DNA of 64,000 nucleotides. Source: Bilabrum cf. latius. Taxonomy: Eukaryota. The notes beneath the pieces were generated by a model. The model did not search any database. It saw only the letters and a list, made by a program, of their open reading frames with translations, and was not told where the DNA came from. The position numbers were made by a program, and so were the translations under genes. The stretch is taken from NCBI GenBank assembly GCA_965178125.1, contig OZ237748.1, positions 992,001 to 1,056,000 of the forward strand. Reading direction: 5' to 3'. Below, piece by piece: positions 537 to 62,900 of this stretch; position 1 is the first letter of the stretch, and every line of letters begins with the position of its first letter.

Positions 537-2680
537 ATGGTTGATCCCGAATTCGTTGGGGCTGTTGAGTTTTGCCTATGCTCATTACCCGATACTGCCG
601 CTAAATTATCATCATCTCTGGTGAAGCGGATGAAGAAGCATCGCTCAAAGCAGCCCTGCTCGTACCTGTTGGATCCACAACCAGACCGCTGGCCTGAGTT
701 TGTCGATTCCCTTCTGGACTGGGCTCAATCAGCGGCACCATCGTGAGAACGGCTGTAATTAGTGGTTTTATGCATGACCTTGCTGGTGTGCGCCTGTTCC
801 TGCCGGGCTGACGACACCCTGGGCGCAGTTCTGGCGCCCGCCACACTCAACAGCGCCTGCCACTGTTTTGCTTCGCCAATCTGGCTTCGCCTGCTTCTGA
901 CCCCCCCGGCTCCTCGATACCACCAGTATCCAATATTCTCTGTAGTGATATTGCAGGTGCTAGTCCGACATCCTCACTCAAATGGCCCTCGCCCTGAAGT
1001 CTTGCGAGGTGTCCAAATTTGACCGGACAAAGACGGCTCAGGGAGCGCTGCATGCCATGGCACAGGCTGTACTTATCGCACGCGGCGGGAAACCATCTCA
1101 CTAGTATGACTTCCAACGTCTCCCTTGTGCCTCGGCTCTAGCAGCTAGTTCTGATTCCCCATCAGCGGCAGCCCAGCGCTCGTTGTACTGGTATCTGCAA
1201 CAACGCCACAATCACCGGCGTGCTGTTCAGGGGTCTCGCCGAATGGACCAACTCAGCTCTTCTGACAGTGATGAGGCGCACGATGGTACCGCGGCTTCAG
1301 GTCAGACTTCTGCTGAGGCCTCTGAGGGCACTGACTCTTCGGACGAAGATGAAGATGAAGAAAGCGAGACCGAAGGTCTACCTCTCCATGGGAGCTCCCG
1401 CGCTGCACGTACTAAGAGCCCCAAGCTGACCCGTTCATTGTCCGCGGCTTCATCGGCTGAGGCAGGCAAAGCCAGGATCCGTAAGCTGCTGGGAGCACCC
1501 TCTCGCGGCTCATCCCCGGCAGCCAAAGGCCGGTGGTCGGAGGTTTATGAGGCGGCTAGTAGGGAGTCCGTGACTACGGCTCCCCCTACCTCGCTCACTC
1601 GGCTATTCGGAACAGCCCTGGACAGTAGTCACCGTCGTGCTCTCGAGGACCTTCACGCAGCAATCGTTCGTCATGCCCAGGCCTCTGCCGGCAAGCCGAA
1701 GGGTCTCACTGACGTTCAGAGCCAACTTGCATCGTTAACTTCAGACATTGTGGCCTTGCAGCTCGATCCTGCCATGGATGGCATTGACTACCTCCGTGTG
1801 GTGACCGGAAAACTGGCTGAGTACGCCTACGCGTTCTATGGGCGCAGTGTGACGATCGACGATGAGGGCCGCTTCCATGAACGTCGGTCTTCATCCAAGA
1901 CGTCACCACCGAGCTACCAGGAGTTCAGTACCCAACTGCAGGTGCGCCTCGGCCGCGTCGCCCGTAGTCTAGAACACGTCTTGACCGACGTGAAGGACCT
2001 GAGCGAGGAGCTCGGGCTTGTTCGCCGGCGGCTAGCGTCCAGCTCCTCCACACGCCGTGCGAAGGCTGCCTTAACTCTCGACCTTCAGGGCCCCGCTTCA
2101 GGACTCACTGTCCGGACCTTAAAGAACTTCGATGGTCCCCTCCTGCTGGCTATCCTGTGGTTGTACGATTGGACTAGCTTCCGTTTAGCGGGTCTTTCCA
2201 GCGGAGCACCATCAGCAGCTGCTCGGACATCTACGGAGATCACTTGGCTCCAACAACACCTGCTGCTCCCTACCCCTCGCGGCCCTGTCCACTCTCGGGT
2301 GGAATGGTTGCCGTTCGTTGTTTCTTCGCAAAGACCAGCTGCGGGAGCAGGGGCTGACCCCAGCGCCGGGGACAAACGTGTCCGCCATCCTCCTCTTTCA
2401 GGCTCTAGCGAGCCCCAGAGTCGGACAGCGGATGTTTCTGCGGAAGCGCACCCGACGAAACGGACACGGACCGGCAAGTCCGCCAAGAGCACTACACCGA
2501 CGAAGGACGTGGGCGCCGCCTTTGGCGGTCAGCCTAAGGCCTCTTCTTCTTCCGCACGCACAACCAGATCCAACGGTGAGGCTGCTCTTGTAGGTTGTGA
2601 TGCGTGCCTCGACTTTGGCATTGATGAGAACTTGATCCTGTTCTCCAGCGAGGGCTAGTGTGACTAGTTGTCACAGATGC

Positions 2681-2746
<66 letters not shown>

Positions 2747-5052
2747 GGGATCGGGAGGACGAGGATGATGACGATGATGAGGCTGATGGCGTGGATGATG
2801 ACGTGGAAGCCGACGATGGCGCAGATGATGTCGGAGGGGTGGCAAGCCGTACTGCCGGCAGCATGGCCAGCGGCCTTGCCTCCACTACGACCGCTGATGT
2901 CGTCGCCGATTATGCCACGGCAACGTCGCAGCCCGGTGTTCATGCTGCCCTTCATCGGGTTCTTGACCATGCTCGGGCTGGGCGAGGAGCTGCAATCCGG
3001 TCTGAGTTTCGACAACTACCTGAAGTTTTGCAGCTGCGCCATCGCATTGGCAAGGATGATGCTCGCCCTCTGGCTGACGACTTCGTAGGCTTGGCCACCG
3101 AGTTAACAAAGCTCGGTGTAGGCTCGGCTGCTCGTCTCGAGGCTCGTCGTGGGACCAGCAGTCATCGTCGGCACGGCGTGGTGGATCCAGCCGGGGCTCA
3201 TGCACAGCTTGTCGCTGCTGGCCTGTCCTCTGCAGCGCTTAAGTACGGCAGTGCCGCTGCAGTCCTCCAGGACATCTGCAGAGGTGCGGATCTTGCCACT
3301 TTCGCAAAGCAGCCGTGGTCTCAGTGGAAATCCGGCGTTGCCCTTCCCAGCCGCACATACTACGACACGGGCACGAGCGACCGGCAGTTTGCAGCCCAGA
3401 CCATTGAGGATCATGTCAAGGCGGGGGTCCTACAACCTGTCCCGGCCGACTAGGAGTATATCATCCTGCCAGTGTTCACTGTCCCCACGACGGACCTTAG
3501 CTCGACCTCAGAGCGGGAGCCCGTGCTTTTACCATCTCTGGGGCCGCAGGCCGGCTGCACTTGGGATCGCCTCCTCCGGGCGGCTGGAGCTCGGTCCTAG
3601 ATCCGGAAACGCCGTCTCGTGATCGACGCAAGGGCTCTGTCTGAGAACCTCCATCTTCCGCGGTATACCATGCACCCTGGTCATGCCTTCTTCGCTGGTA
3701 TTGGCGCAAATTGGTACACCGCCAGTCTGGACCTCAAGAGCTTCTTCACCTCGATTCCGCTGCGTACGGAAGGCAGAATGGCATTTGCAGTGGACGGCAA
3801 CCTCGGACACGGTCCTGTACGTCCCCTTCGATTCTCCAGGGTCTTCTTTGGCTTATCGGTAGCTCCAGCAATCTGCTGCACCATCAGTGCTGCGGTCGTG
3901 GCAGTGGCGCGGGCACAAGGTGTCCACTGGATTCGTTGTTGGATTGACGACCTGGTCATTGCAGCCCCGACCTTGCAGCTGTGCACAAGAGCAGTAGCTA
4001 TCGTCCGCAGGATACTTCGTGGCTTCGGCTTGTTGGAATCGAAATCGAAATACCAGGCCCCCTCGTAGTCTGCGGTGATCCTTGGTATCCAGCTCTGCAC
4101 GCGTGGCTCCGTCACAATGACGGTACCGGCTGCGAAGGCAGCTGATTCTCGTATGGTAGCAGCTATTGCCCGTGCTGCGTGGGCGGAGATGGACACGTGG
4201 ACATCGCAAGTGCAGCTGTTGCCTGCAGGCACGTCGCCACCTTCAACTCTGCTTGGTGAACTCCGCGCCGTACGGGCCGTGCTTTACCAAATGCTCTGCA
4301 AACTTGCAGGCAGAGCTTCGTGGTACTCAGCTTGTCGACAGACTCTTGCTTCCGGGATAGCACCCCTGTTCCGCATCGCAAATGGTCTTCGCTATGGCAA
4401 CGAGCTCACGGCCGAGGACTGGTCGCTGGGCAAGCTCAGCCTGGCAGGCTTGGACAATTGGCTCCGGTCTCCTACCTGTTGTCCTCTGCAGGCGCCACGG
4501 TTCTGGGACGACCTCATCATCATCACGTCTGACGCGGGGGAGTCAGGCGCTGCGGCTATCATTGAGCGACCACGGCACGTTGTCAAGCCTCTCGCGTTGG
4601 CTGTAGACTTCTCGCCTGGTTCGGCTCTAGCAGCATCATCTAGTACACTTCGCGAGGCGGTCGGACTGTACATGGCCTTGTTGTTCTGCTCTCATACCAC
4701 CCACGGTGCCACCGGCGCTGTTTGGATTGGTGATAGTGGAGCCCTCGCTGGGGCAGTTGCAAAGCGAAGTTCTTCGTCGCGGCAACTGAATGAAGCGCTG
4801 TTCCTCATTTTCAAAGAGGTTCAGCGCCTTGCTGTGCCTGGCCTACTGCCTGCCTGGTTGTCTCGCGAGGCTAACACGCTTGCTGATGCTCTTGCTTGCG
4901 CGTCCGGCCCATCGCGATCCACGGTGACGGCAGCAATGCCATTTCGCCTGCATCCCCCTATTGCGTGTCTTCAAGACTTGCACCCTTCGGGATTTGCTCC
5001 GTCTGCTGCTACCTCTTCTCTTAGTGCAGGCAAGACCAAAGGCAGGAAATGA
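537..5052 (+). CDS. Gag-like/RT/RNase H polyprotein of the YR retrotransposon (TAG read as Gln)
   Basis: Frame 958-5052 (1365 codons) has no internal TAA/TGA, only TAG (961, 1102, 2656, 2665, 3451, 3598, 4066), and ends in TGA. RT motifs: PVFTVP, RLVIDAR, SLDLKSFF, FFGLSVAP, WIDDL, APS[TAG]SAVILG. RNase H motifs: TSDAG, LREA, GDS, SREANTLADALA. The upstream ORF 537-742 joins in frame through a candidate intron 743-956 (~1433 aa); alternative starts are ATG 982/1057/1243. Confidence 0.85.
2683..2745 (+). repeat. (GAT)21 microsatellite encoding poly-Asp
   Basis: 21 perfect GAT units, in frame, between the gag-like and RT regions. Confidence 0.95.
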
Positions 5053-5071
5053 GGGGGGAGGCCCGGCCCAA

Positions 5072-6150
5072 ATGGACGGCCATCAGCTTCATCGGGCAGT
5101 CTCGACCGGTGCTCGCCTGTCAGCCAGCTCTCTCAAGGAGCTTGCAGCGACAGCGGAGGTTGCTGATCTTGCTGCCTCCACCTGGGACCATTATCGGGCA
5201 ACTCAGGAGCAATGGAGGCGGTCAGTGTCGCAAGAGGATCGAAGGAGCTCGAGTGATTTCGGTGTGACTGCAGCCAGATTGAAGCCTTTCAAGCCTTAGC
5301 TCAGCCTCCAACTGTCTCAAGCAACGGCAAGTCACCCCCACGCCGAGTCTCCTCCACTCGGACGATGCTCAAGAAGCTCAGTTAGCTCGCCAGCATCGCC
5401 CTGCGCCGTGACTGGACACCAGCCTGGGTCTCCCCCCGCCAAGACCGTATCGTGAAGCAGTTCGTCAAGGGTGTGTTCAATACGCTGGCTAGATTCGATA
5501 TCACGGCGCACTTGGCATCGAAGCGGCCGCTCCGTCTCAGCGAGCTGAGACGTATGCTCCAGCTGCCATGCCACTCAGCCGCAGACGAGCACTGTCAGGT
5601 GGCATTGTTGATAGCATTTATCGGCATGCTTCGTGGCAGCGAATGCTACCCATCGGCCAAAGATGCCGCCGTACCTCTGACATGGAGGCTCCTGGACAAG
5701 AGTGGACAGACCCTAATCCTTGCTCTCCCTCGCGACAAGACCAACTAGCGAGGCGAAGACGATCGCTGTATCGCATTCCCTGAGGCTCCTGCGCCCTTCA
5801 ACGTGCAAAAGCGGCTCCGTCGACTGACTGCCCGCAAGGATTTCTCCATCTCGAGCGGCCTTTTCCCGAGCACGGCCCCCTCATGGTCCCGCAGGAGGGG
5901 TAAACCAATCTTGACAAAGCGGCACTGGACCGATCTGATTCGAGACACAGCCTAGGCAGCCGACGTTATCGGGTTCGAGCGACTAACAGCTCACTCTCTC
6001 CGCCATGGAGCAGCAACGTGCTGCTTGGAACGTGGCGTCCCGGCCGATGTCTTGTAGGCCTTAGGCAGGTGGGCCAGCGATGCTTACAGGGATTATTTGC
6101 ATCCCACGCCCGAGTTCCTTGCTGCTAGTATCAAGAGCATTTTTGTTTAA
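5072..6150 (+). CDS. Tyrosine recombinase of the YR retrotransposon (TAG read as Gln)
   Basis: LAASTWDHY (N-terminal), GMLRGSE (catalytic R), DKTN[TAG]RG, HSLRHGAAT, L[TAG]ALGRWASDAYRDY (catalytic Y). TAG at 5383, 5746, 5953, 6055; ends TAA 6148-6150. The frame change near 5220-5275 is resolved by a candidate intron 5221-5273 (341 aa product). Confidence 0.85.
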
Positions 6151-11666: not shown

Positions 11667-13321
11667 TCACGGCTTCTGGAACTCGCGCAAATACTCAAAT
11701 GCCTCTTCGAAGTCGTCAGTCGGGTATCCCTTCGGGATCAGCGGATAGTTGAAGAAGAATGAGTCTTTATGAGTCTCCCAGATATATTCGAGCGAGGCTT
11801 GCTGGCGCAGGCGTAGACTGCTCCAACCTAGCTTCAGCACCCTGGCCGTGGGCCGCATGTAGGACGTCTCGACGCGCCACAGGTACGCCCCGCTGTCCAT
11901 GTCCACGAGGGCAAGATCCCCCACGCGGTCGCACTCCTCCCCCGTGATGACGAGTGAGCAATTACTGGCAGACGTTCCTGCATTCCAGAAATAGAGACTC
12001 GTAGCGACTTTCACTTCCAGGTCGCAGTTGTTCTTCACTGCTAGAGTGGAGGAGCCCTATCGCCCGTACAGCAGATACTTCCCTTTGCCGAGCAACTCGT
12101 TGCTCCACAGCTTATCCCCTTTGGCGGAAGGTCGCTTGGCGAGCGCCTTGGGGTCGCAGCGAGGAACCCACCCATTGATGGCCCCATGCAGCGCCGCCGT
12201 CTTGAGACCATTGCCGAAGGTCTCGTCGTCGTCAGGACTGTCGAGATCTTCCGACCCCGCAGACCACACGATCGCACCTCCCTGCTGGTGCAGGACGGCA
12301 TTCCCGTCCCCCTGCAGGCGAAGGGTGTCTGCACCCGGGTCCATCATTGAGGTAGGCACCCGCCATATGTACTGCCCGGAGGCGCTGTCCACGATGGCCA
12401 GGTCGCCCTGGGTGTCGCACCCGTCTCCCGTGATGACGAGTGCGCACTTCCCCTCGGTCCCCTTGCCCCTCGTGTTGGTCGCAAACCGTGCTTCGCCCTC
12501 TCGGTGGACCACGAGGTTGCAGTCTCCCTGCATGCGCAGCTCGGCCCCCTCGCCCGCCCTCAAGCGGCCCCGGCTTGCAGCACCTGCCTTGGAGACAGCA
12601 CGTCGCCGCCGGTCACTTGAAGGTACGACGATTGCAAGGCCCCAGCATCGCAATGCAAGTTGTGCACGTCCTCCCGCACCTCTAGATCGAAGTGGAACTT
12701 CCCCCTTCTCTGCTATATGTGGCCGTCGATGGCGCCCCAAAGCGGCTTTCCGCCCTCTTGAAAGAGAACGGCATTGCCGTCCCCCTGGACCAGAAACATG
12801 TCCACCTCGGGAGTGAAAGCAGACGACTGTACCCGCCAGAGGTACATGCCCGTTTGCGTGTCGATGATGGCCAGATCTCCTTGCGTGCTGCACGACGCAT
12901 CCGTCATGAGCAGCGCGCAGTGATCGGTGTGCTTCTCTAATAGTCCGGAGATGAACAACATATCAGTGTGATCATCGTAGACAATAAGATAGCACTAGGT
13001 ATTGAGCCACACCTCTGTCGTGTCCTTGGACAAGTAGTGGGAGGAACGCAGAATCTCGCCCCTCTGCAGCCTGTCGCCCTTTGCTGGCTTCTTCCTCGAG
13101 GCCAAGGCGCTGACGTTGCACGAGTACATGTCAACTCTGTCATACAGAAGATCATACTCTGTGTGTCTGTCCCTGACAGACCTGCTGCCGGCGTGGACCG
13201 AGGCCGACGACATGATAGAGCCAGCGCTGCGAAGGTGCTGCTGGCCTTCTGCTCGTCGCCCGTGCACACGGACCGCCGAGCAGGCGACGAGAGCCAGTAA
13301 AATAGAAACGATTGATTGCAT
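11667..13321 (-). pseudogene. Secreted multi-domain bulb-type (GNA/curculin-like) lectin, copy A, with one frameshift
   Basis: Signal peptide; QGDGNAVL, MQGDCNLVV and KNNCDL motifs; TAG at 12995, 12713, 12057. A 1-nt deletion relative to copy B near 12563 (GCCGCTTGAGG vs GCCGCCTTGAGG) shifts the frame; this could be a sequencing error. Confidence 0.75.
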
Positions 13322-14526
13322 TCCTGCAAACCTATGACTGATGAGCCAGTTGTACCACCTTGCACTGCTGCAGCGGGCGGCAAGAATGTGTGTGACCTCG
13401 ACGCGAGTCGGGCACAGGACCCCGCGAGGGGGCCCAAGGTGGACGGGGGGGGGGGGGGCTGGATAAGGGGGTAGAACTCCGGGTAGTACTGATGACCGTC
13501 TCCCCCTAAATTAAGAACTTTAAGAAACGCACCATCATGTCGTTATGTATCGACATACTTGTGAGAGCTGTTATCGTCAAAGCCCGGTGGACGCAACCGG
13601 AATGTTTCAAATCAAGTGTTTTGCGCTGCATTACACTCGTGGGAAACTGTGATGGAGCGCATTGTATTTCCATACCTCGCTCCCCGCCAGTCGGTCGGAA
13701 TAAGTCGAATAGGCAATGGCAGAAGGAATCCGGGTGCTGCAGCAGGACTTGGCCAAAATTAACGACAAACGCAAGCAAAGGAAGCTGTGCTCGATGCCAA
13801 AACGTACTCAGCTGAACCATGAGAGAGGTGTGCGACCGGGCGAGCGACCTCGGGGCCCTGCTGCAAGTGATGGGCGGCGAGCTGCTGCACCGCGTGCACG
13901 GCAAGGAGGCACTGTTTCCCGAGGTGGCCAGCTGGCAGCGTGGGGGGAGTCTATGCCCGGGCTAGAAAGTTTCTCAAGACGGCGCGCTCCCTGCGGCTGC
14001 ACGCCGCCCTGCTGGCCCAGCTCATCGCGCCTTGCCCGGAGGAGAGGACGGGCAGGAGGAGAACGAGGTCAGGCACTAGGCCGCGGGTCTGGCCCAGATC
14101 GTGTTCGCGGGACCGCTGGTGGATCCTCACCGTCTGGCGGGATGTGTCGCTCGTTGCGTGCGGGACGCTTGGCTCGAGGCGACCGCAGTGTACCGCATCA
14201 TGGCTGGGGGCCGGGCGGCTGTGGCGGCGGCGGTCGGGGGCTGCAAGGCGACGGAGCTCTTCCAGCGGGGCAACAGCCTGAGCAGGTGCTGTTGCAGGAG
14301 GCCAGGGGGTGGAGGAAGTTGCAAGGGGACTTGGACTGCTGGTGGGCTGAGGTGCAGCTCCAGAGGCAGCAGCCCCTTTGGATAAGTAGGGGGCCGGCGC
14401 CGCCGCAGCCAAGAGGGCGAGGGCGGTGGAGGAGAGCGTAGATCCACTCGGGGGCGCGCTCGGCAAAGCATTGGGGCCCTGCAATCGGAAGCAGAAGGTA
14501 GGCAAGCAGAAGCAGAGGTGGAAAAG

Positions 14527-16440: not shown

Positions 16441-18126
16441 TCACGGCTTCTGGGACTCGCGCACATATTCAAACACTTTCTTGAAGTCGTCAGTCGGGTA
16501 TCCCTCCGGGATCAGCGGGGGGGTGGAGAAGAGCGCTCGTTCAAACGTATGCCAGATACCATGGCGCGAGGCCTGCTGCCGCAGGATCAAATTGCCCGAT
16601 TGTAGGTCCAGCACCCTGGCCGTGGGACGCATGTAGGACGTGTCGATGCTCCACAGATACACCCCGCTGTCCATGTCCACGAGAGCAAGATCCCCCACGC
16701 GGTCGCACTCATCCCCCGTGATGACGAGTGCGCACTTCTCGGCCTTGCCCTTGGTCTCTGATCTCCAGGTCTTGCCTCCCTCTGCGAAGGTCTCCACAAG
16801 GTCGCAATCGGACTATAACGTTAGAGAGGCGTCCTTGTTGTCCAATTGCAGCATACGGCCCTTGCGCATGATCTCATCGTCCCACAGTGACTTCCCCCGG
16901 GCGGCAGGTCGCTTGGCGAGCGCCTTTGGATCGCAATGAGGGCGATTCCCATTGATGGCTGCCTGCAGGGCAACCGTCTTGAGACCGTTGCCGAAAGTCT
17001 CGTCCTAGTAGGACTAATCCGCAAATGGCCTCCCCGTAGACCACACGATCGCGCCTCCCTGCTGGTGCAGGACGGCATTCCCGTCCCCCTGCAGACGAAG
17101 GGTGTCTGCACCCGGGTCCATCAGTGAGGTAGGCACCCGCCAGATGTACTGCCCAGAGGCGCTGTCCACGATGGCCAGGTCACCCTGGGTGTCGCACCCG
17201 TCCCCCGTGATGACGAGTGCGCACTTCCCCTCGGTACCCTTGCCCGCCGTGCGGGTCGCAAATCGCGCCGGCCCCCCTTTGTACACCACGAGGTTGCAGT
17301 CTCCCTGCATGTGCAGCTCGACCGGATACCTCTCGTCCTCGCCCGCCCTCAAGGCGGCCCCGGCTCGCAGCACCTGCCCCGGAGACAGCACGTCGCCGCC
17401 GGTCACTTGGTGGTATGAAGATTCCAGAGCCTTTGTATCGCACTGCAAGCTGTGCACGTCCTCCCGCACCTCCAGATCGAAGTGGAACTGCCCGAAACCC
17501 TGCGTCGTGTCGTAGTAATCGGTGCTCCACAGCAGCTGCGCGCCTTCCTGAAGGAGAACGGCATTACCATCCCCCTGGGCCAGAAACGTGTCCACTTCTG
17601 GTGTGAAGATAGAGGATTGCACCCGCCAGAGGTACTTGCCCGTATCCGTGTCGATGATGGCCAGGTCTCCCTGCGTGCTGCACGATGCATCCGTCAAGAG
17701 AAGCGCGCAATGCTCAGCATGAGCCTCGGTGTCGCCCGAAACGAACTAATCCGGTTTGCCCTTGCCGATAACGACCAAATTGCAATCTTTCCGCAGCCAC
17801 ACTACTGTCAAACCTTTGGACAATGCATTATCGAATGGGGCCGCGGCAGAGTGCAGAATCTCGCCTCTCTGCAGCCTGTCGCCCTTTGCTGGCTTCTTCC
17901 TCGCGGCCAAGGCGCTCACATCGCAGGAAAACATGCTAACTTTATCAAATTTGAGGTCAAACTATGTGACTGTGCGGCTATGGTGCCTGCTGCTGCTGGC
18001 GTGGACCGAGACCGACGACATGGAGCCAGCGCTGCGAAGGTGCTGCTGGCCTTTTGCTCGTCGCCCGTGCACACTGACCGCCGAATAGGCAACGAGAGCT
18101 ATCAAACTAGAAACGATTAATTGCAT
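16441..18126 (-). CDS. Secreted multi-domain bulb-type lectin, copy B, intact with TAG=Gln (561 aa)
   Basis: Single frame from ATG 18126 (MQLIVSSLIALVAYSAVSVHG) to TGA 16441. Only TAG interruptions (17962, 17746, 17014, 17005, 16813). Repeated QxDxNxV-type motifs, including LTL[TAG]SDCDLV. Confidence 0.85.
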
Positions 18127-18404
18127 TCTTGCAGATCACTTTGTGCTGATGCAGTGGACGGCAAGGGAACGAGCCGGAATCTTGGCCAGATCCCCGCAAG
18201 GGGTGGATGGCCCGGGGGTGGATGTCTCCAAAAAGGGGTGCACCCCCCCCTCCCCCCCCTTAATATCCACTGAACAATTTGACCACATTACTTGTTCATA
18301 TGCATTACTTTAAAAACTATTGGTGTTTTTGACTTTACGGTGTCCTTGCAAATTGTATTTCTAACTGTTAGGATTTGTCAATCCACCGCACAGATGCACC
18401 TCCT

Positions 18405-19772: not shown

Positions 19773-22700
19773 ATGCTACAGTCTTACATCCACAGGGAAG
19801 ATGCGCTGCGTGAGGCTGCCAAACTTGGCAAAGTGGACGACTTGAGGGCTTACATGGATGCGGGAACGGACATTGAATCAAGAGATAAGGTGAGGTCAAC
19901 TTCAGCAGAATATTGTATTATCTCCATGTTTGTTAAGCAGTATATGAAGAAGGCCCAGTCGTCGAATTGCGGCCAAGAACCGCAGCTGTTGACCGCATGA
20001 ATCTTGCTACGGGGTTCACTGACTACGTATCTGCCAAGCATGCCAAAAGCAGCGGCGTATACCGTATATCCGAATTATGCGTAGCGACCACGGGATGTGG
20101 TACCGACACTCGGTAGTGCACTGACTGCGATACAGAGGTGGCTAGGTGTGGGACTTCTTGGAGCTGCACTGGTACAAATACGTGATCAATAGATGCAAGC
20201 TATTTGATGTCTTAACCTTCATATGCTGCCATACCGGCAGTCCAGCAGTCGCGTGAACAAGTCTGCTACACGGTAGATGTCGCGGGAGGTGGTCGCATAT
20301 CCGATCGTTGAAGCGTGCCTGCATACTTGTAACAACTGATACAATTTATAATTCATTGTGCAATGTCCCCTGGGGTATCTTGCTACAGTGGTAGCTGAAT
20401 CCTGCTGCAGATTGATGCATGTCCGAGTTTGATTCGCCCGCCGCTGCACCGCAGTATGGAAGAACAGCCGCACACTATGCAGCAATGGAAGGTCGCTTGG
20501 ACTGCCTGAAGCTTGCCATCGAAAGAGGTGCTGATATGGACGCAGCAAAATCTGTGAGGAGGACAGGCTGATACAACGGCTACAATGTGTGTGAAGGTCG
20601 TGACAATGAGTGTTACTCTCAAACTAAGCAAGCTAACTTAGCTAGACTGATCGCTTGTCCATAGATCTGAAGTGTTCCACCGGACAGCTTTTAGACTTGA
20701 TGCTGGCATATGCAATGCACTGCGTTCCATCCACCGTGTGCCCATCCGGATACTCATCGCAGGACGGCGTCACACCGGCCCATGTGGCGGCGGGGGCAGG
20801 CGACCTTGAGTGTCTTCGCTTGATCGCTGCACTTGGCGGGGATTTGAATGCTCGTAGGAATGTGAGTCGAAACCACGGCTTTACTAACGAATTACAATAG
20901 CTTTCTTCTGTTCAGTGTATTCGGATATTGAGGTGTTTACGTAATCGCGCAAACCCTTGCGACTGCATGTCTTCATACACATTCTGCGAGCCTCAAGCTG
21001 CCTTTCCCATCCAAGTGGCCGACCACTTCTCTTCCCTGCCCATCCAGAAGAGCTCCCATCTTGACCTGATGCGCATACCCTCCCTACCTTGCGCTCAATT
21101 CTCCGTGTTACCATGCGCATCGCAGAATGGCGCCACACCGGCTCATTTGGCAGCATTAAAAGGCCACCCCGAGTGTCTCCGCTTGATCGTTGCACTCGGT
21201 GGGGATGTGAACTCTCAGGCTAATGTGAGCGAGAAACATTGCCTGCTCGCAGGTGCAGCTGCGAGTCTGCACGTAGTGCAATTTGACAATGGGGTGCTCG
21301 CGTGATCTTGGTAGCTAGGATCTATCGGCAGCGAGACGCGGCTGTTGGTTCCAATTCTCGTGTCCGACTGCCAATGCAACAGAGCTTACGCATCCCGGGT
21401 AGACCTGATGCTGGCAAATGCCCTACCCTGCGCTCCTTCCTCCATGCTCCCATTAACATCGTAGAATGGCGCCACGCCAGCTCATATAGCTGCAGTCAAA
21501 GGCCACTTTGAATGCCTCCGCTGGATCTCTGCCCTTGGCGGGGATGTGAACGCTTAGAATTTCGTGAGGTAGCCTCTAGAACCATGGCTTGGTCACAAGT
21601 GTGCGAGCTTGTTCGGAGTGTAGTTGCTTAAAGGCATGTCTTCATGATCGCGCAAGCTAGCGGAAAGAGGTGGTTATTGCTAGAAAGATTAACAATGTCT
21701 CACTCCAGGCATGGAACAAGGGCTTTGTGCACGCTTTAAGCTGCCTTCCCCATCCACTTACTCCGGGAAGGGTTCACTGTTCGTTCGCGAACGTGCAGGG
21801 TCTACACACTTCTTTTAGAACCCCGGGCAAACATTACAAGATCGGTCCCGGCGAGTTCCTTCTCAGCATTCACTCGAACGCGTGCTCCATGTGCCCATTT
21901 TCATCGCAGAACGGCATCACACCGGTTCATTTAGCAGCTTTAAAAGGCCACTCCGAGTGTATCCACTATATTGCGGCACTTGGCGGGGATGTGAATTCTC
22001 AAGCTCATGCAAGGTTGAACTACGGCTATACCACAAGGGTGAGAGTCTGGCCGTACTGCAATTGGTCAGTGGCGTGTCTGCATGACTGGAAGAATGACAG
22101 GTAACCATCGACTCTAAATAAGAGCACTGATTACCTTGAAACCCGGACCAAGTGGCCATTTGCGAGCTTTCAGCCGCATTTCCCATCTATATTCCCGACC
22201 ATACCTCTCCCCCGCCAACCCAACATAGCTCACATCTAGACTTGATGCTCGCACTTGCACTTCGCTGCTCTCTTTTCTGCATTTTCTGAAGTCCATCGCA
22301 GAACGGCGCCACACCGGCCCATAAAGCAGCACAGGGCGGCCACCTTGAGTCTCTCCGCTTGATCGCTGCACTTGGCGGGGATATGAATGCTCGTGGTGAT
22401 GTGAGAGACAGCCACGTCTTTACCATAGGTGTTCGAGTTTGTCCGGAGAATCATTACTTTTTGGCACGTCTGCACGATAGCGCAAACTGGTTGCAACGTG
22501 TGGTTTTTGCTTAGACAATAAGATCGACAACATTTCTCACTCCAGGCCTGGAACATGGGCTTTGCATAAGCATGTGGCCGGCTGGGAAAGTTCCCATTCA
22601 TGAGGCCGCCAACGTCTCCCCTGCCCATCCAGAGGAGCTTGCATCTTGACATGGTGCTCATACCACCCTACCTTGCGCTCCATCCTTCACATTTCCATAT

Positions 22701-30981: not shown

Positions 30982-31765
30982 GCCTTCTGTATTTCAAGAT
31001 AGGCGGAGCTTGCACATCAATTTCCCGAAATTGGTATTTTAAGAATGTACAGTGCTATTCAAAGGGTTCAATCCGGATTCTTCTTCGGTTGCAGTTTAAC
31101 TGGTTTCAGCTGGCGCAACATATATCGATCGGCACTGTAGGTGAGCAAAGTTTGTCATTTACTTGACCTGATCTGATGTTCGAGTTCGCGTTGACACTTG
31201 TCGCGTTGAGCGGATCATAGTTCCGGTTCATGTCTCAATGGGCGAGGCGCGCAGGCCGCCTCTGCCACGCGCTGCGTCAAATGACTGTTTTGTTTGCCGG
31301 AATGCTCGCTGCAGCTGCGTATTTATTGTCTCAGAGCAGTTGAATCTGTAGGTCTACGTTTGACTCTTGCCTGCCCGCAAGCATGTTGCGGTCGGGGCGA
31401 GTCTGCGACTTGGCTTGAGATGCAGCTGCCTGCACCTACTTTGCATGCGCACCGACATTCGCACAGGCCCTGTTTTGCAAATAATCACGGAATTATCTCG
31501 TTTGGCTCAATTAATCGCGGTTGCCTACGCACGGTGCTTCGAGCCTAGCTTGATCCACCATTTGCATCCACAGCCGTGCCCGTTGCACTCCGTCCAGCCC
31601 GGGCAACAACATGCCACATCTTACTTGCAATGCATCGCAGGTCTACGTATACGAGAGTAACGCTTGCTCTCAAAAAAATCCGGCTGAAGCTCGCATTCAG
31701 CACAAACACCCAGGCGCGCTTCCATCCAACGAGGCCTTCCAAAGACCCCGGACGCACTCGTCATC

Positions 31766-45692: not shown

Positions 45693-45867
45693 TCCATGCT
45701 GCTCCGCCCCTCCCTAGCGCCCAGCACCACCGTCTGTCCCACGTCCCACGTGCCTTCTTGCTTCCCCTCTACTACCACGCGCCGCAGTGACCGCCGGCAG
45801 CAGGTAGCAGGGCTGAACCAGCTGCTCCCACCACCGCGATACTCGTCACACACATCCAGCCCCTTCC

Positions 45868-48800
45868 ATGTCGGAGCACGTGTGGTACCGTCACGCGGCC
45901 GACTGCTGGCGGCTGGGGGCGGTGGCACAGCTGAGGGGGGAGGAGATGCAGGTGCGGGATGCGGAGGACGGGAGCGAGACGGTGCTTCCCCTGACGGACC
46001 CCAAGTCGGGGCAGAAGAACACGCACCCCTGCGACCCTTCCCACCTCCAGGACACAGACGATCTAGCGAGGATGAACAACCTGCACGAGGGGCCCCTGCT
46101 GCACCTGCTGAGGAGGAGGTACCTCGAAGACAAGATATACACCTTCACGGGGCACATTTTGATCTCGATTAACCCGTACTTCCTCATCCCCGGGCTGTAC
46201 GTGATCCCGGAAGGAGTCTCCCACGAGACCAGGCTGGCACGGGACGAGGACAGGAAGCCGCACCCCTTCACTGTGGCCCACCAGGCCTACCAGCAGATGA
46301 GGGAGGAGAGCAATCCGGCCAGGAAGAACCAGTCGCTGATCGTATCGGGGGAGTCGGGGGCGGGCAAGACGGAGGCGTGCAAGCGGATCATGCAGTACCT
46401 TGCCCATCTGAGCGAGACATTCTCCAAGCAGGTGGCGAGGAGATCTTCCCTGGCCAGGAAGAGCGGCAGCATCGAGAAGCGGGTGCTGGACTGCAACCCG
46501 TTTCTGGAGGCCTTCGGGAACGCCATGACGGTCCGGAATAACAATTCTTCCAGGTTCGGCAAGTTCCTCAAGATCGAGTACAGCAACGGGGCCATCGTGG
46601 GCGCGACCATGAGGCACTATCTCCTCGAGAAAGCACGGGTGGTGAGTCCACAAGGGGGGGAGAGGAACTACCACTCCTTCTATATCCTGATGCGCGGCGC
46701 CACCGAGGAGGTCAAGCGGAACCTCGGCCTCACCCGACCGGCGGAGGAATTCGCCTACCTGTCCGCCGGTGGTGTGACGAGGATCGACGGGGTGGACGAC
46801 CGGGAGGAATTCGGGATCGTGTGCACTGCACTGCGGAACGTGGGGCTGCCCGACCCCGTGACGGAGATGCTGTGGGCCACCCTTGCGGGGATCGCCCACC
46901 TTGGCGACATTGCCTTCATCGAGACAGGTGACGATGCCGCCCCCAAAGCTGCCGTGTCAGAGGCGGGTAGGGAGGCGACCGCGTGGGCGTCCAAGCTGCT
47001 TGGCCTGCCGGACATCGAGGGCGGCTTGATCTCCAGGAAGGTAAAGGCCCCAGGGCAAGCCGCCGTGGTGGTGCCTCTGTCCCAGCAGCAGGCCAGGGAC
47101 ACGAGGGACGCGCTGGCCAAGAGCCTCTACGACCGGCTGTTCTCGTGGATCATCGGGCGGACCAATGACTGCGTACAGAGCACGGAGGCGTCCAACGCCT
47201 TCATCGGTATCCTGGACATCTTCGGGTTTGAGATCTTCGAGCATAACTCCTTCGAGCAGCTGTGCATCAACTTTGCCAACGAGAAGCTGCAGAACCTGTT
47301 CAACCACCACATCTTCATCATGGAGCAGGAGCAGTACGAGCAGGAGGGTGTCGATGTGGCGGCCATCGAGTTCATCAACAACCAGCCGTGCGTGGATTTG
47401 ATCGAGAAGAAGCCAGTGGGTCTGCTGCCCATGCTGGACGACGTTTGCGTGCAGGCGGTCAAGGGCATGACGGACACCAAGTTCAAGGGGAGGTTGGACC
47501 AGCAGCACCTGGGCAAGAACAAGTACTACGGCGTGCCTAGGAAGAACAAGCAGAAGCAGTTTGTGGTGCACCACTTCGCCGGGGCAGTCACGTATTCCAT
47601 CTCCGGGTTTATCCACAAGAACAAGGACGCGCTGCACTCGGACCTGCAGAGCATGGCGCACTCGTCACAGTCGCAGCTGGTGGCCAGCCTGTTCGATGAG
47701 TCGGGGACCATGGCCACGGAGCTGCTGCTGAGGCATGGGGGGGGCGTGGGTGCCATCGGTGGACTCAAGGGGCGGGTGGGGGAGCTGCAGGGGGGGGGAG
47801 GGGCCGGTGGGGCCGCGGGGGACTCCCCCTCGGAGGGCGGGGCCGATGATGCGGATAGTGTGACGAGTGCGGCCCGGGGGAGGTCGTCGTCCCCGTCGGG
47901 CCGGTCGGTGCGGTCCGGGTCACCATCGGGTGGCCGCAGCGGGTCACCATCGGTTAGTCGCTCCAAGAGCGGGGCGGTGGGTAGGACAAAGAGCGGCAAG
48001 GCAAAGAAGAAGAAGAAGAAAGGACCCCAGACGCAGACGATCGGCGCCAAGTTCAAGCACCAGCTGGGGGATCTGAACGACACGCTGCTTCAGACCTCCC
48101 CCCATTACGTCCGGTGCATCAAGCCTAACTCGCTCAAGGCCAAGCACAACTTCGACAACCGACGGATCTTGGACCAGCTGCTGTACTCCGGTGTCCTCGA
48201 GACGGTCAGGATCAGGCGGCAGGGCTTCCCCTTCAGAGAGACCTTCACGGAGTTCTGGAGGAGGTGCAACGCGGGCTCGGAGAGCGCGGCCATGAAGAGG
48301 GCCAGCGCGGCTTTGGCCAGGCGAAGATCCAGGGCGATGAGTCGGCAACCCAGGGGTGGATCCATGTCGGCGGGGCCCGGGTCACCAGCCCAGTTCAATG
48401 GCGGTGGTGCCTCCAGCGGGGCGGGGGCGGGTGGGGGTGCGGCGGCCGGTGGCTCTCCCAGGTCCCTCTCCTCCCCTGGTCTGTTGGACGAGTTCACCGG
48501 TGTCCTGGGGGAGTCCCCCCCGGGGGTGCCTGCCCACAACCCCAACGTGCCGGGGTCCATGCCTGGGGGCAGGGTCACGGGGTACAAGCTGCTGATCAAA
48601 GAGACCCACGGGATCCCCGCCCCGCCCCCGCCCCTGTATCAAGAGGTCAAGGAGAAGGGCGGCTCCAGGCGCACCATAGACGCAAGCTAGACGGAGGACG
48701 TGATCGAGCTGTCCAAGGGGGGTACAGAGGCAATCTGCCGTGCGCTGATCCCACCGGACCAGTGGGTGATGGGCAAGACGAAGATCTTCATGAAGGACGG

Positions 48801-51800
48801 GGCCATGGAGAGCATCAGCCTGAGGTACAGGGCGCACCACACCACGAGGATCCAGGCGTGGTGGAGGATGTCACTGGCGAGAGAGAGGTACCACGATGCT
48901 AGGCGGGCGCTGGCACAGGCCAAGGGGATGTGGAGGAACGTGCTGGCGACTAGACGGGCCAAAGCCATGGAGCAGACGGTCGTCAAGCTGCAGGCACTCG
49001 TCAGGGGAAAGCTGGCGAGGAAGCGGGCGGCCAAGAAGAGGCACGCCAGGGAGAACGCGGTGGGGACGATCCAGAGGGTGGTCAAAGGCAACTTGTACAG
49101 GCGGAAGTACCTGGCCAAACGCAGGGGCGCCGTGATGATGCAGTCGATCGTGAGGATGAGCCAGGCCGTCCGTCTAGCTGCCAAGCGAAGGTGGCTCTGC
49201 ATCCGGGTTACCTCCATCATCAGGGGCTGGCGGGCCAGGCGACTGGCCAGCCGGAGGAGGCGGGCGCTGAGGGAGGGCTGCACTAGGATCCAGGCGGCGT
49301 GGAGGGGGCTGTCCGCCCGACGAACGTTCGCCGCGAAGCGCAAAGCGGCCCTGCTGCTTCAGGCGCGGGTGCGCGGGCGGAACCAGCGGCGAACGTTCGT
49401 GAAGCAGCGGAGGGCCGCCGTGATGCTGCAGTCGCTGGCCCGCGGAAGGGCGGCGCGCGTCCGCTTCACCCGGCAGCGCGCCGCAGTGCAGTGCATGCAG
49501 CGGTGCGCCCGCCGCTGGCTCAGCATCGCCCAGCACAGGCGCAGGCAGAGGGCGGCGAGAAAGATCGAGAGGTGCGCCGATGCGTGGCTCGGCAGGCGGG
49601 CGCTGGACAGGTGGGTGCAGGACCTGCAGGCGGCGGCGAGCTGGGGAGATGTCGCGGAAATTTCCTCGGTGCTCGGCTGCGAGGACGGCCGGCTCCACGG
49701 GCGGCTGCGCGGCATCCCGCTGGCCTCCCGGGTCGCGATCCGGAGCCGATTTGACGGGAAGAGCGCGCTTCACGTGGCGGCCGCGGGGGAGGAGGCGGCG
49801 GTTCGGTTCCTGCTGCGGGCGGGTGCCGATCCCCTGGCTCTGGATCGGGCGGGCCAGACTCCCCTTCACAAGGCGGCCGCGGTGGGCGATTCGCACGTGG
49901 ACGTGGCCCGGGGGCTGCTGGAGGCCAGCGAGAGGGGGAGTACCGGTGTGACGAGTGGAGGGCGTGCGGCTCTGCTGGCGCAGACGGACGGGCGGGGCGA
50001 GACTGCGCTAGACACGGCTGTGCGGGAGCAGCGAAGGACGAGGAGGAGGACGCACGCCAAGATGATCCGGCTCCTGCTGGAGGCGGGGGGGGAGGCCCGT
50101 GCCACGAGGGGGGGCACAGCTGCGGTGAGGAGGCTTGTAGGGACCTTGGCACCGGAGGCGAGCGGGAGCCGGGCCTGGCTGGCGAGGGAGGAGAAGGCAT
50201 GGGAGCAGCAGCAGCAGCAGAGGGCGGAGGACCCGCACTATCAGCTGCTGCTGGTGCAGGAGCAGGAGAGGAAGAAACAGGCCGAGAGAGAGAGGGTCAG
50301 TCGGGGGGTCAGGGAACAACGGGCGAGGAGGGACGGGGCGCTGGCCAACGCGGAGTGCAGGCGGATGGCAGCAGAGGACAGGATCTCCCGGGGTCTCAAC
50401 GCGATCTGGAGGCAGCTCGAGGACGGGGGTGTGACGAGTGCTGGGGGTGGGGGTGTGATGAGTGCGGGTGTCCCTGTGCCCCGGTCCGCTGGGGCCCTCC
50501 CCAAGGCGCCCTCTTCCGACGATGCGGGCGGTTGGAGGAGCGGTGATGGTGTGACGAGTGCGACACCCGCCCGGGTGCCCGGCGCGGCGGTGGCGTCTGC
50601 GGTGGCTGTCGTCGCGCCCGAGGCGTTCGGCGGTGCGGTGCACCGGGGGTCTGGATCCAAATCTGGGTCGGGGTCTGGGTCTGGGTCTGGATTTGGGTCG
50701 GCGCGCTCGGACCAGGCTGCGGTTGGATCGGAGCAGTCCACCGGTGGATTGCCCCAGACGGAGAGACCTAGGGGGCAGGAGGGGGAGGGGGAGGGGGAGG
50801 GGGAGGGGGAGGCGGCTCTATCCGATGGATTTCACAGCCGGGGCCGGGACCAGGGGTGGAGCGAGACCCGGGGTCAGTTTGGCGGGGGTCAGTTCGAGTC
50901 CCAGTCCCAGTCCCAGCCACACGGTAAGCCGAGGCAGTAGTTAGCAGCAGATACGATCGATAGTTATGCGAGAGGAAAATCCGCCGCCGCTGGATCGTCG
51001 GTTGAGCAAGGATCGTCGGTTGAGCTGGACACGTTGTTCCGCGAGAGGGGCGGGGTTCGATCCAGGCGGGAGAGGGAACAAGCCGAGAAGGATGCACTGC
51101 ACGGTGGTGCAAGCAGCCCGCACCCAGGCCCGGAGGCAGCAACGGAGGCGGGGCGTCTGGCGGGTGCATCGCATGGTGGTGCTGACGGTAGGCAAATGAT
51201 TTCGGGCAGTTCCGGAGTCTCGGATGATGTGACGAGTGCACGCCCCCGCTGGGAGCAGGACGGCCTCACGAGGCAAGAGAGGGAGAAGCAAGCAGAAACA
51301 GACCCAGGCGAGAGGAAGGCCACCGAGCATCAGAGGCAGGAGCAGGAACAGGAGCAGGAGCAGGGACAGCCATTGGCTCAATCCCACCGGTTGCAGCCGC
51401 AGCCGCAAGGTTCTCCGTCCCTGTCCCTGTCTCAGTAGCAGCAGCAGCAGCAGCAACAACAGGAGCGGACGCCTGCCAAAGGGGGCGCTAGAGGGTACAG
51501 CCCCGCCCCCGTCATGGGGACGCGCTCGTCACACGCTTAGAACTCGCCGCAATACCGGTAGCAGCAGCAGCAGCAGCATAGCGCGCCCGTTGGTGTGACG
51601 AGTGCGGCCCAGATGGTGCTGCCGCGCACCGGAAGCAGCCGGAGCATCGGGGGCGGCGGTGTGACGAGTGGCAGCCGCATGCCGCAGGGCCCCCGCGTCT
51701 ACTCGCCCCTCGCCGAGGCCGTGCGGGGGAGCAGCGGTGTGACGAGTGGTAGCGGGTCGGGCACGGGCAGGTCGAGCGGCGGCGGCAGTCGCTTTAGCCG

Positions 51801-52749
51801 TGTGACGAGTGCATCGACCCCTGGGACCAAGCCGTCGCTGGCCGAGGCCGTGCGATCAGCCTCGTCCTCGTCTTCGTCTCTTTCGCACACCGGGTCTGGC
51901 CGCGGGCTGGGTGTGACGAGTGGTATCGGACAGGGGCGCAAGCAGCAGCGCGGTGTGACGAGTGAAGGGACCCCAGTCTCTAAGCAGGCGTCCCAAGGTG
52001 CATCCGCCGGCGCCTCACTAGATATAGCAGCAGCAGCATCATCATCAGCATCGAGCATGCACGCTTCCTCGGCCCCTGCCCCTGGCCCTGCTGCTTCTTC
52101 TCCTCCCGCGTGGTCCATCCACCAGTCGAGCTCCACAGGCCTGCTGTACTACCACAATCGTCACACCGGCAAGACCCAGTGGGACGAACCCGCGGACCTC
52201 GACTGCCAGTACGAGGGATGGCAGCTGGCCGTGCTCCGTGTGACGAGTGAGGCGTTCAGGAGGCACGCGATGCCGGCCGCCACGGAGCTGCACGCCGCCA
52301 GGGAGCGGGTGCAGGCGCAGGAGCGAGAGGCCAAGCGGCTGCAGGAGGCGGCCGAGAGGAGGGCGGGGTACGGTGTGACGAGTGCTACGGCTGGTGGGGA
52401 TGTGGCAGGTCTGGCGGGTGCTTCCGCAACAGACGCTTCTTCATCTGTGGAAGGTGCACCGCACGGTGGTGTCCCCGGCCGGTCGGACCGCCTCGTGCTG
52501 GAGCACGCGATCCAGGGTGCATCGAACGGCAGCGCACATCACTCGTCACACCACCCCGCTAGATCCAGTGGTGAGGAGGCCCCGTATGACCCCGAGCAGG
52601 ACGCTAGCATGTGGAGCGCGCACGAAGACGAGGAGGGGCACCTGTTCTACTACAACGCGAGGACGGACAGGTCGGTGTGGGAGAGGCCGGCCTGTCTGGG
52701 GCCAGTGCCTGCCGGGTATGAGATGGTGGGTGGTGTGGGGGGCAGGTGA
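45868..52749 (+). CDS. Unconventional myosin: motor - IQ repeats - ankyrin repeats - two WW domains (2293 aa with TAG=Gln)
   Basis: GESGAGKT, LEAFGNAMTVRNNNSSRFGK, LDIFGFE, NEKLQ, PHYVRCIKPN, MGKTKIFMK; multiple IQxxxRG; SALHVAA/TPLHKAA; WW domains WSIHQSSSTGLLYYHNRHTGKTQWDEP and WSAHEDEEGHLFYYNARTDRSVWERP. One frame with TAG at 48688, 50938, 51436, 51538, 51559; ends TGA 52747-52749. Confidence 0.93.
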
Positions 52750-59964: not shown

Positions 59965-59969
59965 AACAG

Positions 59970-62900
59970 TGCTGGCACAAACGATGGTCTGTGTGGGTAG
60001 ACGAATCCTTTGAGATTGGCGGGCGGCTCCTGCAACAAATGCTCAATAGAAGTCCCGTCATCCGATACAAAGTCTAACCTAGCACCGGCTTGCAGAAGGT
60101 GCATGAGTCCGCTGATGTCTTTGTAGATCTGGGTTAGGACCACCAGAGGGAGGCCAGACTGGGATGAAATAGTTAAGGTGGAATCAAGTGATGGCAAGCA
60201 TAGTACCAGCATTGCACTCATGGATCAGCGATACATGGGATATTTACTACTTCTGTAACTTGATTCTCACTTTATCTACTCGGTCCGCCGACATGCCGTG
60301 CTTGAGCAACAGCGGTATCTTGCCTCTGAAAACCCATGGAGCATACGCTTTGGTCTTCTCAGCCACATGGCAGTCTGGATCTGCCCCTCTGGACAGCAAA
60401 GTGCGCGATATTGCGCCCTTAATTGGCGGTTTACATGATGGGAACTCCAGCAAAGGAGAATCGAAGGGATTGTGCTGTGATAGAGAGAGAAGGGAACGGG
60501 TTGCAGCGCTCGTGCAACAATAGCACGCAATTCGTTGTAACTGACAAACACAGCGCATGCCATGCGATGCTCTCACGCTGTTGTCCAGTGGAACCCCAGC
60601 ATCGAGCAGCAATTTGCAAACCTTGGGGGCATCTGTTTTCTTGCCTAGTGAACGACAGTTTCGGACCACTCTGTCAGTCTGCGCTTAAGAAGTATAGTCC
60701 GATCGTCTCGTATACAAAAAAGGTGAAATATCATTTATGTCTAAACACACAGCAGGCATGAAACAATACTCCCCTAACTCACCCTCTTGCACAGGTTAAG
60801 CCCATGACGGATTTGCAGCGCCACGCCCACCGCTCGGCCCATGCTGTACATCTCCTGCAGTCTCGAACATGAGCAAGTTACTAGATGGGAATAGTTCCAT
60901 TCTCAACATTCAATTGCACAAACGAATGATCTGCACTCTCACCGGTGGGATCCCCCAGCTGTACAGCAGGCCAAGCACCGATTCAAAGACAGAATCTTCG
61001 GCACCACGCAGCCAGGATTCCATGCTCTGTCTCACAGCCTGCTTGCGGAGAGAATGCAACTCAAAGCGAGATACCAGCGTACATAGCATCATCATCAAAT
61101 GCACGAATACTCTTGCGATTCGGATTCACCCAGTGCGTGAAGTCAACTCCTGCCTCTCGGCAGACTTCCCAGTACGAAAGAGGCAGGTCTTTGCCACACA
61201 AAAACTTAATTGTGAACTGCGGTGATGTTACGGAGACCAGCAGACGCTAGAAATTTCAGGACACAGCAGAAAGGTATTCAATGCACCCAATGGCATCTCA
61301 CTTGAGCGTATTGCAGCAGTTCATCTAGTTTGTCTCTGTGATGGCTGACAACCTCATCAAAGCCTTTGGCGTTGAGAAGATCCACCAGCTCCATCATTAA
61401 TACTTTTCTTACGACAAGCAATGAGTCACTGGATTTGATTTTGCAGAAATTGCATTGAAGCTGTGAGGGAACGTTCGTCAGGCTTCTATGGGAATATCTA
61501 CCTTTCTTCAAAATCTTCCCTACTATGATCACACGTTGTAAAATATGGCGAGCGCTGCCCCTCAGTGCCTGATCAGCAGACGGCTTCATCGCCGCTCAAG
61601 TCTAATAGCGACCTTCCACCTTCCACATCCGCATGTGGTCGGGTAATCCAATCCCATAATCTGAGCCACTCGTCTCACAAACGCCCAAACCCCCATCTGC
61701 CAGGCCTGTGCCTCTCCCTTCCACTCCACCGTATCAACCCGATGACCCCACCACTCATCTTCTCCTCCACTCCTTCCTCACCCGCTTTGGTGAACCATCG
61801 CCCCCTCCCCATCTGCTCCGCCCTCAACCCCCATTCGCTCACCCTTAGTCGCCGCCGCTCCTGGTCTGCATCCCTAGCCGCTCTCTCTCTCACACTCCTC
61901 CGCATCGCTGCTTTGCATCTGCTCCTGCAACTCGCGCGAGTCCTGCGACCACCGCTCCACCTCAATCTCAAATACTGTGCTGGCCTCACCAACCAACACG
62001 CTGCCATTGGGCGACGGGTTTCCGTAGCGTGCTGCCGGCCAGCCCCAGCCCTCGTGCACAGCCCCTAGGCCAGGACCCATCGCCTGACCCAGACGTGGAT
62101 CCAGTGGCCCACTCGCCTAGATCGTCGAGCAGCAGCTGCAACACCATTCTCCCGCCCCAACTATGCGAGTCTACATCCGCGTCCCCGACCTGTTCTATGG
62201 TACGCGCTACCTATCTATACATCCCCATCCATACCAGATCTGATCCAAATCTCAGAACTCCTTCGGATATCACCGCCCTTCTTTCCCACATCCCAGCCCT
62301 GTCTGTGCCACTTGTTTCTTCGAATCCACCCACCCTATCCACCATGTATTCTTCATCCCTCCTCTTCGACACTTCATATTCATCTCACGCATGTACTGCC
62401 TCCAGTGCAAAGCCACAGCCCTCAACGCCACATGCCCAAGTCCGCGCCCTGATCCTTCAGCAACGCCTCGCATTCAACGTGCCCACCCCGTACAGCCGCT
62501 TCCAAAGCTGTCACATACTCACCAGCATCACCTAAATCACCCGCCAGCAAACAACCCTTCCGATGATGCCCGCCAGCCAGCTTGCCTAATCGCAGACGCT
62601 TGGCCAGTTCCAGAGGCCTCCCCTCGCTCGCTGCTTTAAACACCAGTGCTACATCCCTGTGCGCCTCCATCCCCTACCGCCAGCCCACCACCGCCCATAT
62701 CCTATCGCGCGGATCTGGAGGTCCTTCACGAAGTGTCTCACGATCCCCTGTTGCCTTGAGGTGGTCGATGATGAGCCGGAGAAGCCGCTGGGGGTTGCCG
62801 CGTGTTGATGGCAGGAGTGCTGGCACAAACGATGGTCTGTACCGGTAGCTCAATAATTTGAGATTGGCGGGCGGTTCCTGCAGCAAATGTTCAATAGAAG

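Follow-up and report, generated by a model that had tools for sequence, protein, structure and literature searches.

The 64,000-nucleotide stretch of contig OZ237748.1 (assembly GCA_965178125.1) from Bilabrum cf. latius, positions 992,001 to 1,056,000 of the forward strand, is eukaryotic nuclear DNA whose G+C content varies from 48% to 72%. The whole of this stretch is called the window here, and positions are counted from its first letter. The present analysis concerns the meaning of the codon TAG in this DNA, because the standard code breaks up long frames that open once TAG is taken as a sense codon. Seven such frames, to which the counts below refer unless another scope is given, were delimited:

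45817..52749 (open frame 45817-52746), + strand: myosin gene, 2310 codons in a single open frame, terminator TGA; 5 in-frame TAG (+) at 48688, 50938, 51436, 51538 and 51559
31688..35878 (open frame 31688-35875), + strand: dynamin-family gene, 1396 codons, ending in TGA; 4 in-frame TAG (+) at 32072, 33692, 33710 and 35246
26044..30945 (open frame 26047-30945), - strand: Vps51-like gene, 1633 codons, ending in TAA; 3 in-frame TAG (-) at 28452, 27927 and 26076
949..5052 (open frame 949-5049), + strand: retroelement pol frame (reverse transcriptase, RT), 1367 codons, ending in TGA, with Pfam RVT_1; 7 TAG (+) at 961, 1102, 2656, 2665, 3451, 3598 and 4066
5257..6150 (open frame 5257-6147), + strand: tyrosine recombinase (YR) open reading frame (ORF) of the same retroelement, 297 codons, ending in TAA; 4 in-frame TAG (+) at 5383, 5746, 5953 and 6055
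16441..18135 (open frame 16444-18135), - strand: lectin B, a three-domain bulb-type lectin, 564 codons, ending in TGA, with Pfam B_lectin and PDB lectin matches; 5 in-frame TAG (-) at 17964, 17748, 17016, 17007 and 16815
23584..25635 (open frame 23584-25632), + strand: ankyrin-family C-terminal frame, 683 codons, ending in TGA; 9 TAG (+) from 24094 to 25600

In Pfam searches the myosin matches Myosin_head (E = 7.6e-207), IQ, Ank and two WW domains, the dynamin-family frame matches Dynamin_N, Dynamin_M and GED, the Vps51-like frame matches VPS51_Exo84_N (E = 2.6e-09), and Phage_integrase covers residues 92-276 of the YR product. The Pfam search gave no match for the ankyrin-family frame 23584-25632, whose N-terminal part of about 150 residues is common to paralogues at 43745, 37582 and 62425, and which has no internal TAA or TGA, against 9-21 of these in the other frames there. 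The first two TAG codons of the RT frame (961 and 1102) may precede its real start. This RVT_1 frame (949-5049) is followed on the same strand by the Phage_integrase frame (5257-6147), which is the gene order of DIRS-like retroelements, where a tyrosine recombinase stands after the reverse transcriptase in place of a DDE integrase. The public protein sets contain relatives of the retroelement (68-75% identity) only in the form of short ORF fragments, located on contigs that are longer, and a scan of JGI metagenomes with the RT gave 52 pattern matches, none of which was confirmed.

Stop-codon counts and homology across TAG

With terminators set aside, the 8250 codons of the seven frames contain 37 TAG, no TAA and no TGA. 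In the five remaining frames of these stretches there are 220 TAG, 82 TAA and 576 TGA in total, which corresponds to means per frame of 44, 16.4 and 115.2, respectively. TAG is thus about as frequent in frame as out of frame, where TGA is approximately 2.6 times commoner than TAG. As terminators, TGA is used in five of the seven frames, TAA in two and TAG in none. If the ratio of TAA to CAA were the same as that of TAG to CAG, about 9 in-frame TAA codons would be expected (37/279 x 68) and none is found; TAA does not appear to be reassigned. It should be considered that the frame limits were set by TAA and TGA, and the non-circular support for a sense TAG is homology on either side of the TAG codons in the same frame. 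At least nine homology-supported coding frames contain TAG, at the density of an ordinary codon, and all homology-supported genes in the 64 kb show the in-frame TAG pattern. That TAG is read as sense here is nearly certain.

An earlier note on this DNA, made from its letters alone, had taken TAG as sense, most likely as glutamine, with TAA and TGA retained as stops, and this core reading is supported by our analysis. The number of TAG codons it had given for each gene, identical to those listed above, agrees with the sequence, and its figure of more than 40 in-frame TAG codons is reached when lectin A (one TAG), three short ankyrin exons and one additional frame are counted together with the seven frames:

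20400..23300, + strand: ankyrin exon array, one ankyrin repeat per exon, GT-AG introns, Pfam Ank matches; exonic TAG codons (+) at 21555 and 22740
11670..13510, - strand: lectin A, a paralogue of lectin B, split over two frames; TAG at 12059, 12715 and 12997
43745-44821: frame with 3 TAG

Could the TAG codons be simply damage or error, whether through pseudogenes, dead transposon copies or misassembly? Mutation from CAG to TAG is common, the retroelement and some of the lectin copies could be dead, and lectin A, which may be a pseudogene, is split over two frames. However, decay would bring TAA, TGA and frameshifts too, whereas 37 of 37 in-frame stops are TAG in spite of the excess of TGA out of frame, and apart from TAG nothing interrupts the frames of myosin, dynamin and vps51 (1396-2310 codons). 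The stretch is present in seven public runs from three studies, all of them contigs and probably of DNA, and four of these runs were aligned to 16400-36000. In that region 18 of the 21 TAG sites are located in contig pieces that show zero differences and come from the two studies other than that of the best-matching run, so that these sites are identical to the letter. Assembly error behind the TAG codons is unlikely, and damage or error of any of these kinds is extremely improbable as their source.

The homology that runs across the TAG codons is most evident in the dynamin, the retroelement and the myosin. In the dynamin, TAG 32072 is located between the N-terminal helix and the P-loop, in a stretch aligned without gaps to dynamin-1 structures, and the whole GTPase domain comes after it. 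The RVT_1 domain spans TAG 4066, and the Phage_integrase domain spans three of the TAG codons of the YR frame. The motor domain of the window myosin contains no TAG; TAG 48688 is located in a lineage-specific insert directly before the conserved converter block and the IQ motifs, and the IQ, Ank and WW domains lie downstream of TAG codons, both WW domains after all five.

Two TAG triplets that had been candidates for codons were rejected as such. Alignment of the exons of the ankyrin array shows a pyrimidine tract and CAG or TAG before each exon and GTGAG or GTAAG after it, the acceptor being CAG in six of seven cases and TAG in one, at 21462. The latter triplet stands opposite CAG in six of six paralogous exons, but it is a 3' splice acceptor after a pyrimidine tract (the exon size of 99 nt, or 33 codons, was counted by hand for this exon only). 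The same applies to 62979, which stands opposite CAG in an 88% copy.

The existence of these two acceptors, together with the fact that TAG is a legal 3' splice site, speaks for a standard code under which the TAG codons are spliced out in in-frame introns; U-to-C editing of UAG to CAG is another variant of the same explanation and likewise yields Gln. On the other hand, TAG 4066 of the RT and TAG 32072 of the dynamin are placed within ungapped conserved blocks, so there is no intron at these sites, and introns that accounted for more than 30 sites would each need to be in phase, free of stops and of a length divisible by three. To our knowledge, there is no precedent for nuclear U-to-C editing that affects about 0.45% of codons. 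Splicing or editing under the standard code is therefore very unlikely.

More attention is required by the ends of two genes, where the position of TAG speaks against a purely sense codon. TAG 26076 precedes the TAA of vps51 by 9 codons and TAG 25600 precedes the TGA of the ankyrin-family frame by 10, which, with seven frames, is a hint that TAG may also serve as a stop. Under such an ambiguous code TAG would be sense within genes and a context-dependent stop at some gene ends, as in some ciliates. At 0.45% TAG per codon a TAG so close to the end is expected in about 4% of genes, and two of seven is marginally high (P ~0.035, a hand estimate). However, homology ends at a TAG in none of the seven frames, and the dynamin frame stays open for 209 codons beyond TAG 35246, with six in-phase copies of the 13-mer described below in that tail; seven frames are, in addition, too small a sample for such a conclusion. 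We consider an ambiguous code improbable.

The amino acid read at TAG

Three TAG codons fall on columns where conservation can be assessed at the level of motifs, namely RT 4066, lectin 16815 and YR 6055, and all three are on Gln, which makes Gln the best reading, although not a proven one. The first of these had been assigned by the earlier note to the Gln of the P(S/T)Q motif before the hLG motif of RT, and indeed Gln is present in 100 of 138 aligned homologues, the other residues being Thr (13), Arg (10) and Lys (6). TAG 16815, the first position of xSDCDLV in lectin B, had been assigned to the Gln of the bulb-lectin motif. This holds for the seven printed PDB segments (Gln in five, Glu in one, Arg in one and Lys in none) but not for the paralogues in the window, which have Lys, Asn and Arg. 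In YR, TAG 6055 corresponds to the Gln of IIQEL in 4a8e, a XerC-like chain that is matched only weakly (E = 0.98). TAG 5746 of the same frame, which the earlier note had assigned to the Gln of KT(D/N)Q in DIRS recombinases, may occupy that position; a word-index search gave no YR homologues at E <= 1e-5.

The relatives of the RT contribute in a different manner. Gln occupies site 3598 in the closest relative that spans it (P0126, 68% identity), and the ORF of a 75% identical relative (P0125) stops exactly before this site. The ORFs of two further relatives (P0127 and P0128), of 92 and 221 codons on contigs of 1812 and 3730 nt, stop just before the CAG that the window has at RT residue 257. These ends look like cuts made by a standard-code gene caller at what would be TAG in the relatives.

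The poly-Gln contexts quoted for 35246 (CAG CAG CAG TAG CAG CAG), 51436 and 51559 were found as given. Six runs of at least three Gln codons are present in the seven frames, and TAG occupies 3 of the 12 codons that flank them (P = 2e-5), compared with 0.47% of all non-Gln codons. A Codetta-style profile tally of the RT, dynamin and myosin families, in which three TAG columns are available, gave 0.43 for Gln, 0.15 for Lys and 0.09 for Thr; the control assigned the correct amino acid to 57 of 61 sense codons, and codons with about three columns reach only 0.4-0.5. In a BLOSUM tally with one vote per column, 20 TAG columns gave 0.51 for Gln and 0.35 for Lys, and external homologues alone gave 0.55 and 0.05.

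Several observations weigh against Gln, or at least against the certainty of it. Most TAG columns are variable. At RT 3598 only 2 of 40 homologues have Gln and the commonest residue is Lys (7 of 40), and at RT 3451 Gln is present in one of seven. The Gln of FSAIGQ, which TAG 32072 of the dynamin was said to occupy, is found in dynamin-1 structures but in only 6 of 120 homologues, 84 of which have Val. Similarly, Gln is indeed present once at each of the two ankyrin sites compared with paralogous exons, but as a minority (one of five at 21555 and one of six at 22740), which is weak support. The lectin paralogues have mostly Lys, Arg or Asp opposite TAG, and TAG 12997 of lectin A stands opposite Asp or Asn in seven of seven paralogue segments; lectin A is poor evidence for the meaning of TAG. 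The window paralogues taken alone turn the BLOSUM tally to Lys (0.60), followed by Arg (0.20) and Gln (0.08). A Gln codon of any kind adjoins TAG in 5 of 37 cases, which is not significant (P = 0.135), and the flanking of poly-Gln runs could reflect only the mutational origin of TAG from CAG together with tolerance of any residue there. Finally, the tRNA scan found no tRNA genes in the window, an Rfam scan of the window gave no match either, and eRF1 is not among the genes of the window.

These observations are the basis for considering another amino acid, with Lys as the likeliest, followed by Arg or Glu. In addition to the paralogue tally, RT 3598 and the poly-Gln flanks, which fit a tolerated replacement derived from CAG, the lectin sites 7737, 12059 and 16815 carry AAG or AGG in paralogues. 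However, Lys, Arg and Glu are the usual substitutes for Gln in variable columns, and several lectin copies are possibly pseudogenes. In the motif-level columns the contrast is clear, with Gln ahead of Lys by 100 to 6 at RT 4066, no Lys among the lectin segments and Gln opposite TAG in YR, and the external homologues point in the same direction. A sense codon for an amino acid other than Gln is accordingly rather improbable, whereas Gln is the best candidate for TAG and a likely one.

Our results thus suggest a eukaryotic nuclear genome in which UAG is read as sense, most probably as Gln, and translation is ended by UAA and UGA, and we hold this to be probable. Such a code would employ a tRNA-Gln with a CUA anticodon, one base from the CUG anticodon, and a release factor eRF1 with impaired recognition of UAG. 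C-to-T transitions in CAG would then be free to produce new TAG codons, and such an origin would account for the TAG codons in and beside CAG runs.

Host affinity and known codes

The affinity of the host was approached through the myosin, the best matches of which are about 50% identical. A FastTree tree was made of 49 motor domains, hand-picked from 120 listed matches and the window. The window myosin is located in a clade of 20 rows (support 100), the sole named member of which is Triparma laevis, and in the enclosing clade of 31 rows (support 100) the named members are all stramenopiles (Triparma, Phaeothamnion, Pythium and Phytophthora). Judged by this gene, the affinity may be described as stramenopile-like, which is a lead and not a placement, considering that the family is rich in paralogues and the method is a quick one. 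The dynamin is without a close relative, its matches in animals, fungi, a diatom and green algae being 35-48% identical. One fact could be held against a wider use of this code: a metagenome scan with P0398 gave one contig (L001), on which a relative of the myosin with 50% identity has a 912-codon frame without a single TAG. The motor domain of the window myosin is also free of TAG, and therefore the result from the relative is uninformative on the extent of the code.

Judging by gene structure, G+C content and the type of myosin, the organism is neither a ciliate nor a fornicate; a myosin of such a type, we assume, argues against either host. An independent case of UAG reassignment is plausible, and the literature that was searched contained no account of a stramenopile with a changed nuclear code.

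The proposed code equals NCBI table 15, in which UAG is Gln and UAA and UGA are stops. According to PMC11687900, UAG alone has come to stand for Gln in Iotanema spirale, Protocruzia tuzeti and two phyllopharyngean ciliate lineages (Hartmannula and Trochilia), with 58% and 70% of internal UAG codons on conserved Gln in Hartmannula and Trochilia, respectively; the same source gives UAG as Leu in a rhizarian and some ciliates and as Ser in Scotinosphaera. Compared with these Gln users, the window has the same restriction to UAG, the same two stops and probably the same amino acid, but the host is GC-rich, neither ciliate nor fornicate, and has retroelements and long genes. The window resembles the Leu and Ser codes in that UAG is uncoupled from UAA, but differs from them in the amino acid. 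The crAss-like phages use code 15 as well, although in bacteria. Codes in which both UAR codons are Gln (table 6; ciliates, Ulvophyceae, Hexamita, Streblomastix and Amoeboaphelidium) reassign UAA too, whereas the frames of the window are without in-frame TAA and two of them end at it. In Condylostoma and karyorelict ciliates the reading is context-dependent and typically all three stops are affected; in the window TAA and TGA are never in frame.

Nuclear codes in which UAG and UAA differ in meaning are rare. If true, the present case would provide an additional independent data point on the uncoupling of these two codons, from a GC-rich non-ciliate with long genes, retroelements and introns, and it would test whether AT-biased genomes or gene-sized chromosomes are needed for a change of code. 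On the practical side, gene callers that use the standard code will cut the proteins of this organism at every TAG.

The 13-mer and other features of the window

The three very GC-rich single-exon genes (vps51, dynamin and myosin) share another characteristic, an invariant 13-mer, GGTGTGACGAGTG, found for example at 32319-32331, 33747-33759 and 51593-51605. Its 9-base core is present in 48 copies, all between 26.5 and 52.6 kb (window 26505-52550), and 47 of these are inside the three genes. Among the 36 sense-strand copies 34 are in one codon phase and read G-V-T-S, and 10 of the 11 antisense copies are likewise in one phase and read H-S-S-H. The copies sit in lineage-specific low-complexity inserts, their flanks are unconserved, and they are identical to the letter in contigs of the other studies. 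The 13-mer is absent from all fetched homologues.

Tandem copies are found at 29729/29744 and 34291-34348, and three convergent pairs (71, 128 and 179 nt) resemble tiny inverted-repeat elements. The 13-mer was considered as the 5' end of a conventional intron and rejected as such: the frame is open through all copies, and 71 nt, the length of the one clear inverted pair, is not divisible by 3. A palindromic CRE-like 9-mer encoding G-V-T-S was also considered and dropped, as it is present in a single copy only. The literature on the 9-mer yielded primer matches only, and a scan of viral contigs for a 14-mer form gave single chance matches only.

The 13-mer may mark a new kind of element that enters coding DNA in frame. 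A broader and tentative proposal, to which we give somewhat less than even weight, is the following: the window would represent a nuclear reassignment of a stop codon, the first in a stramenopile-like lineage and independent of ciliates and fornicates, with the 13-mer perhaps a new element invading genes in frame. Within this proposal AT pressure would not be the driver, since the genes reach 72% G+C.

In the remaining parts of the window, 20 further ORFs from unannotated DNA gave no Pfam match. A 621-codon frame at 38780-40642 (- strand) contains one TAG, belongs to no Pfam family and has a hydrophobic C-terminal stretch; by its sequence, the product looks like a lineage-specific surface or membrane protein. 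At 56123-57652 (+ strand) two ORFs share one frame with a single stop between them, and the second contains YNRYMGGVDLADRQ, which we take to resemble piggyBac-type transposases; Pfam gave no match at E <= 0.01. The segments 59596-61400 and 62425-64000 are copies that match by 74-98% in several frames, which indicates a duplication at the level of DNA. A run of 200 N is located at 59765-59964. A long simple repeat occupies approximately 14300-14900, where minus-strand frames read poly-Phe and poly-Leu over some 100 codons.

The bulb-type lectins form a family of genes and fragments on one strand of the window:

6525-7079, 7264-7803, 10864-11337, 11670-13510, 16444-18135 and 18408-19169, - strand (6500-19200): bulb-type lectin genes and fragments

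Over 16400-17700 the summed contig depth of the compared runs is 30-100 times that of neighbouring single-copy DNA, and therefore the lectin family is probably large.

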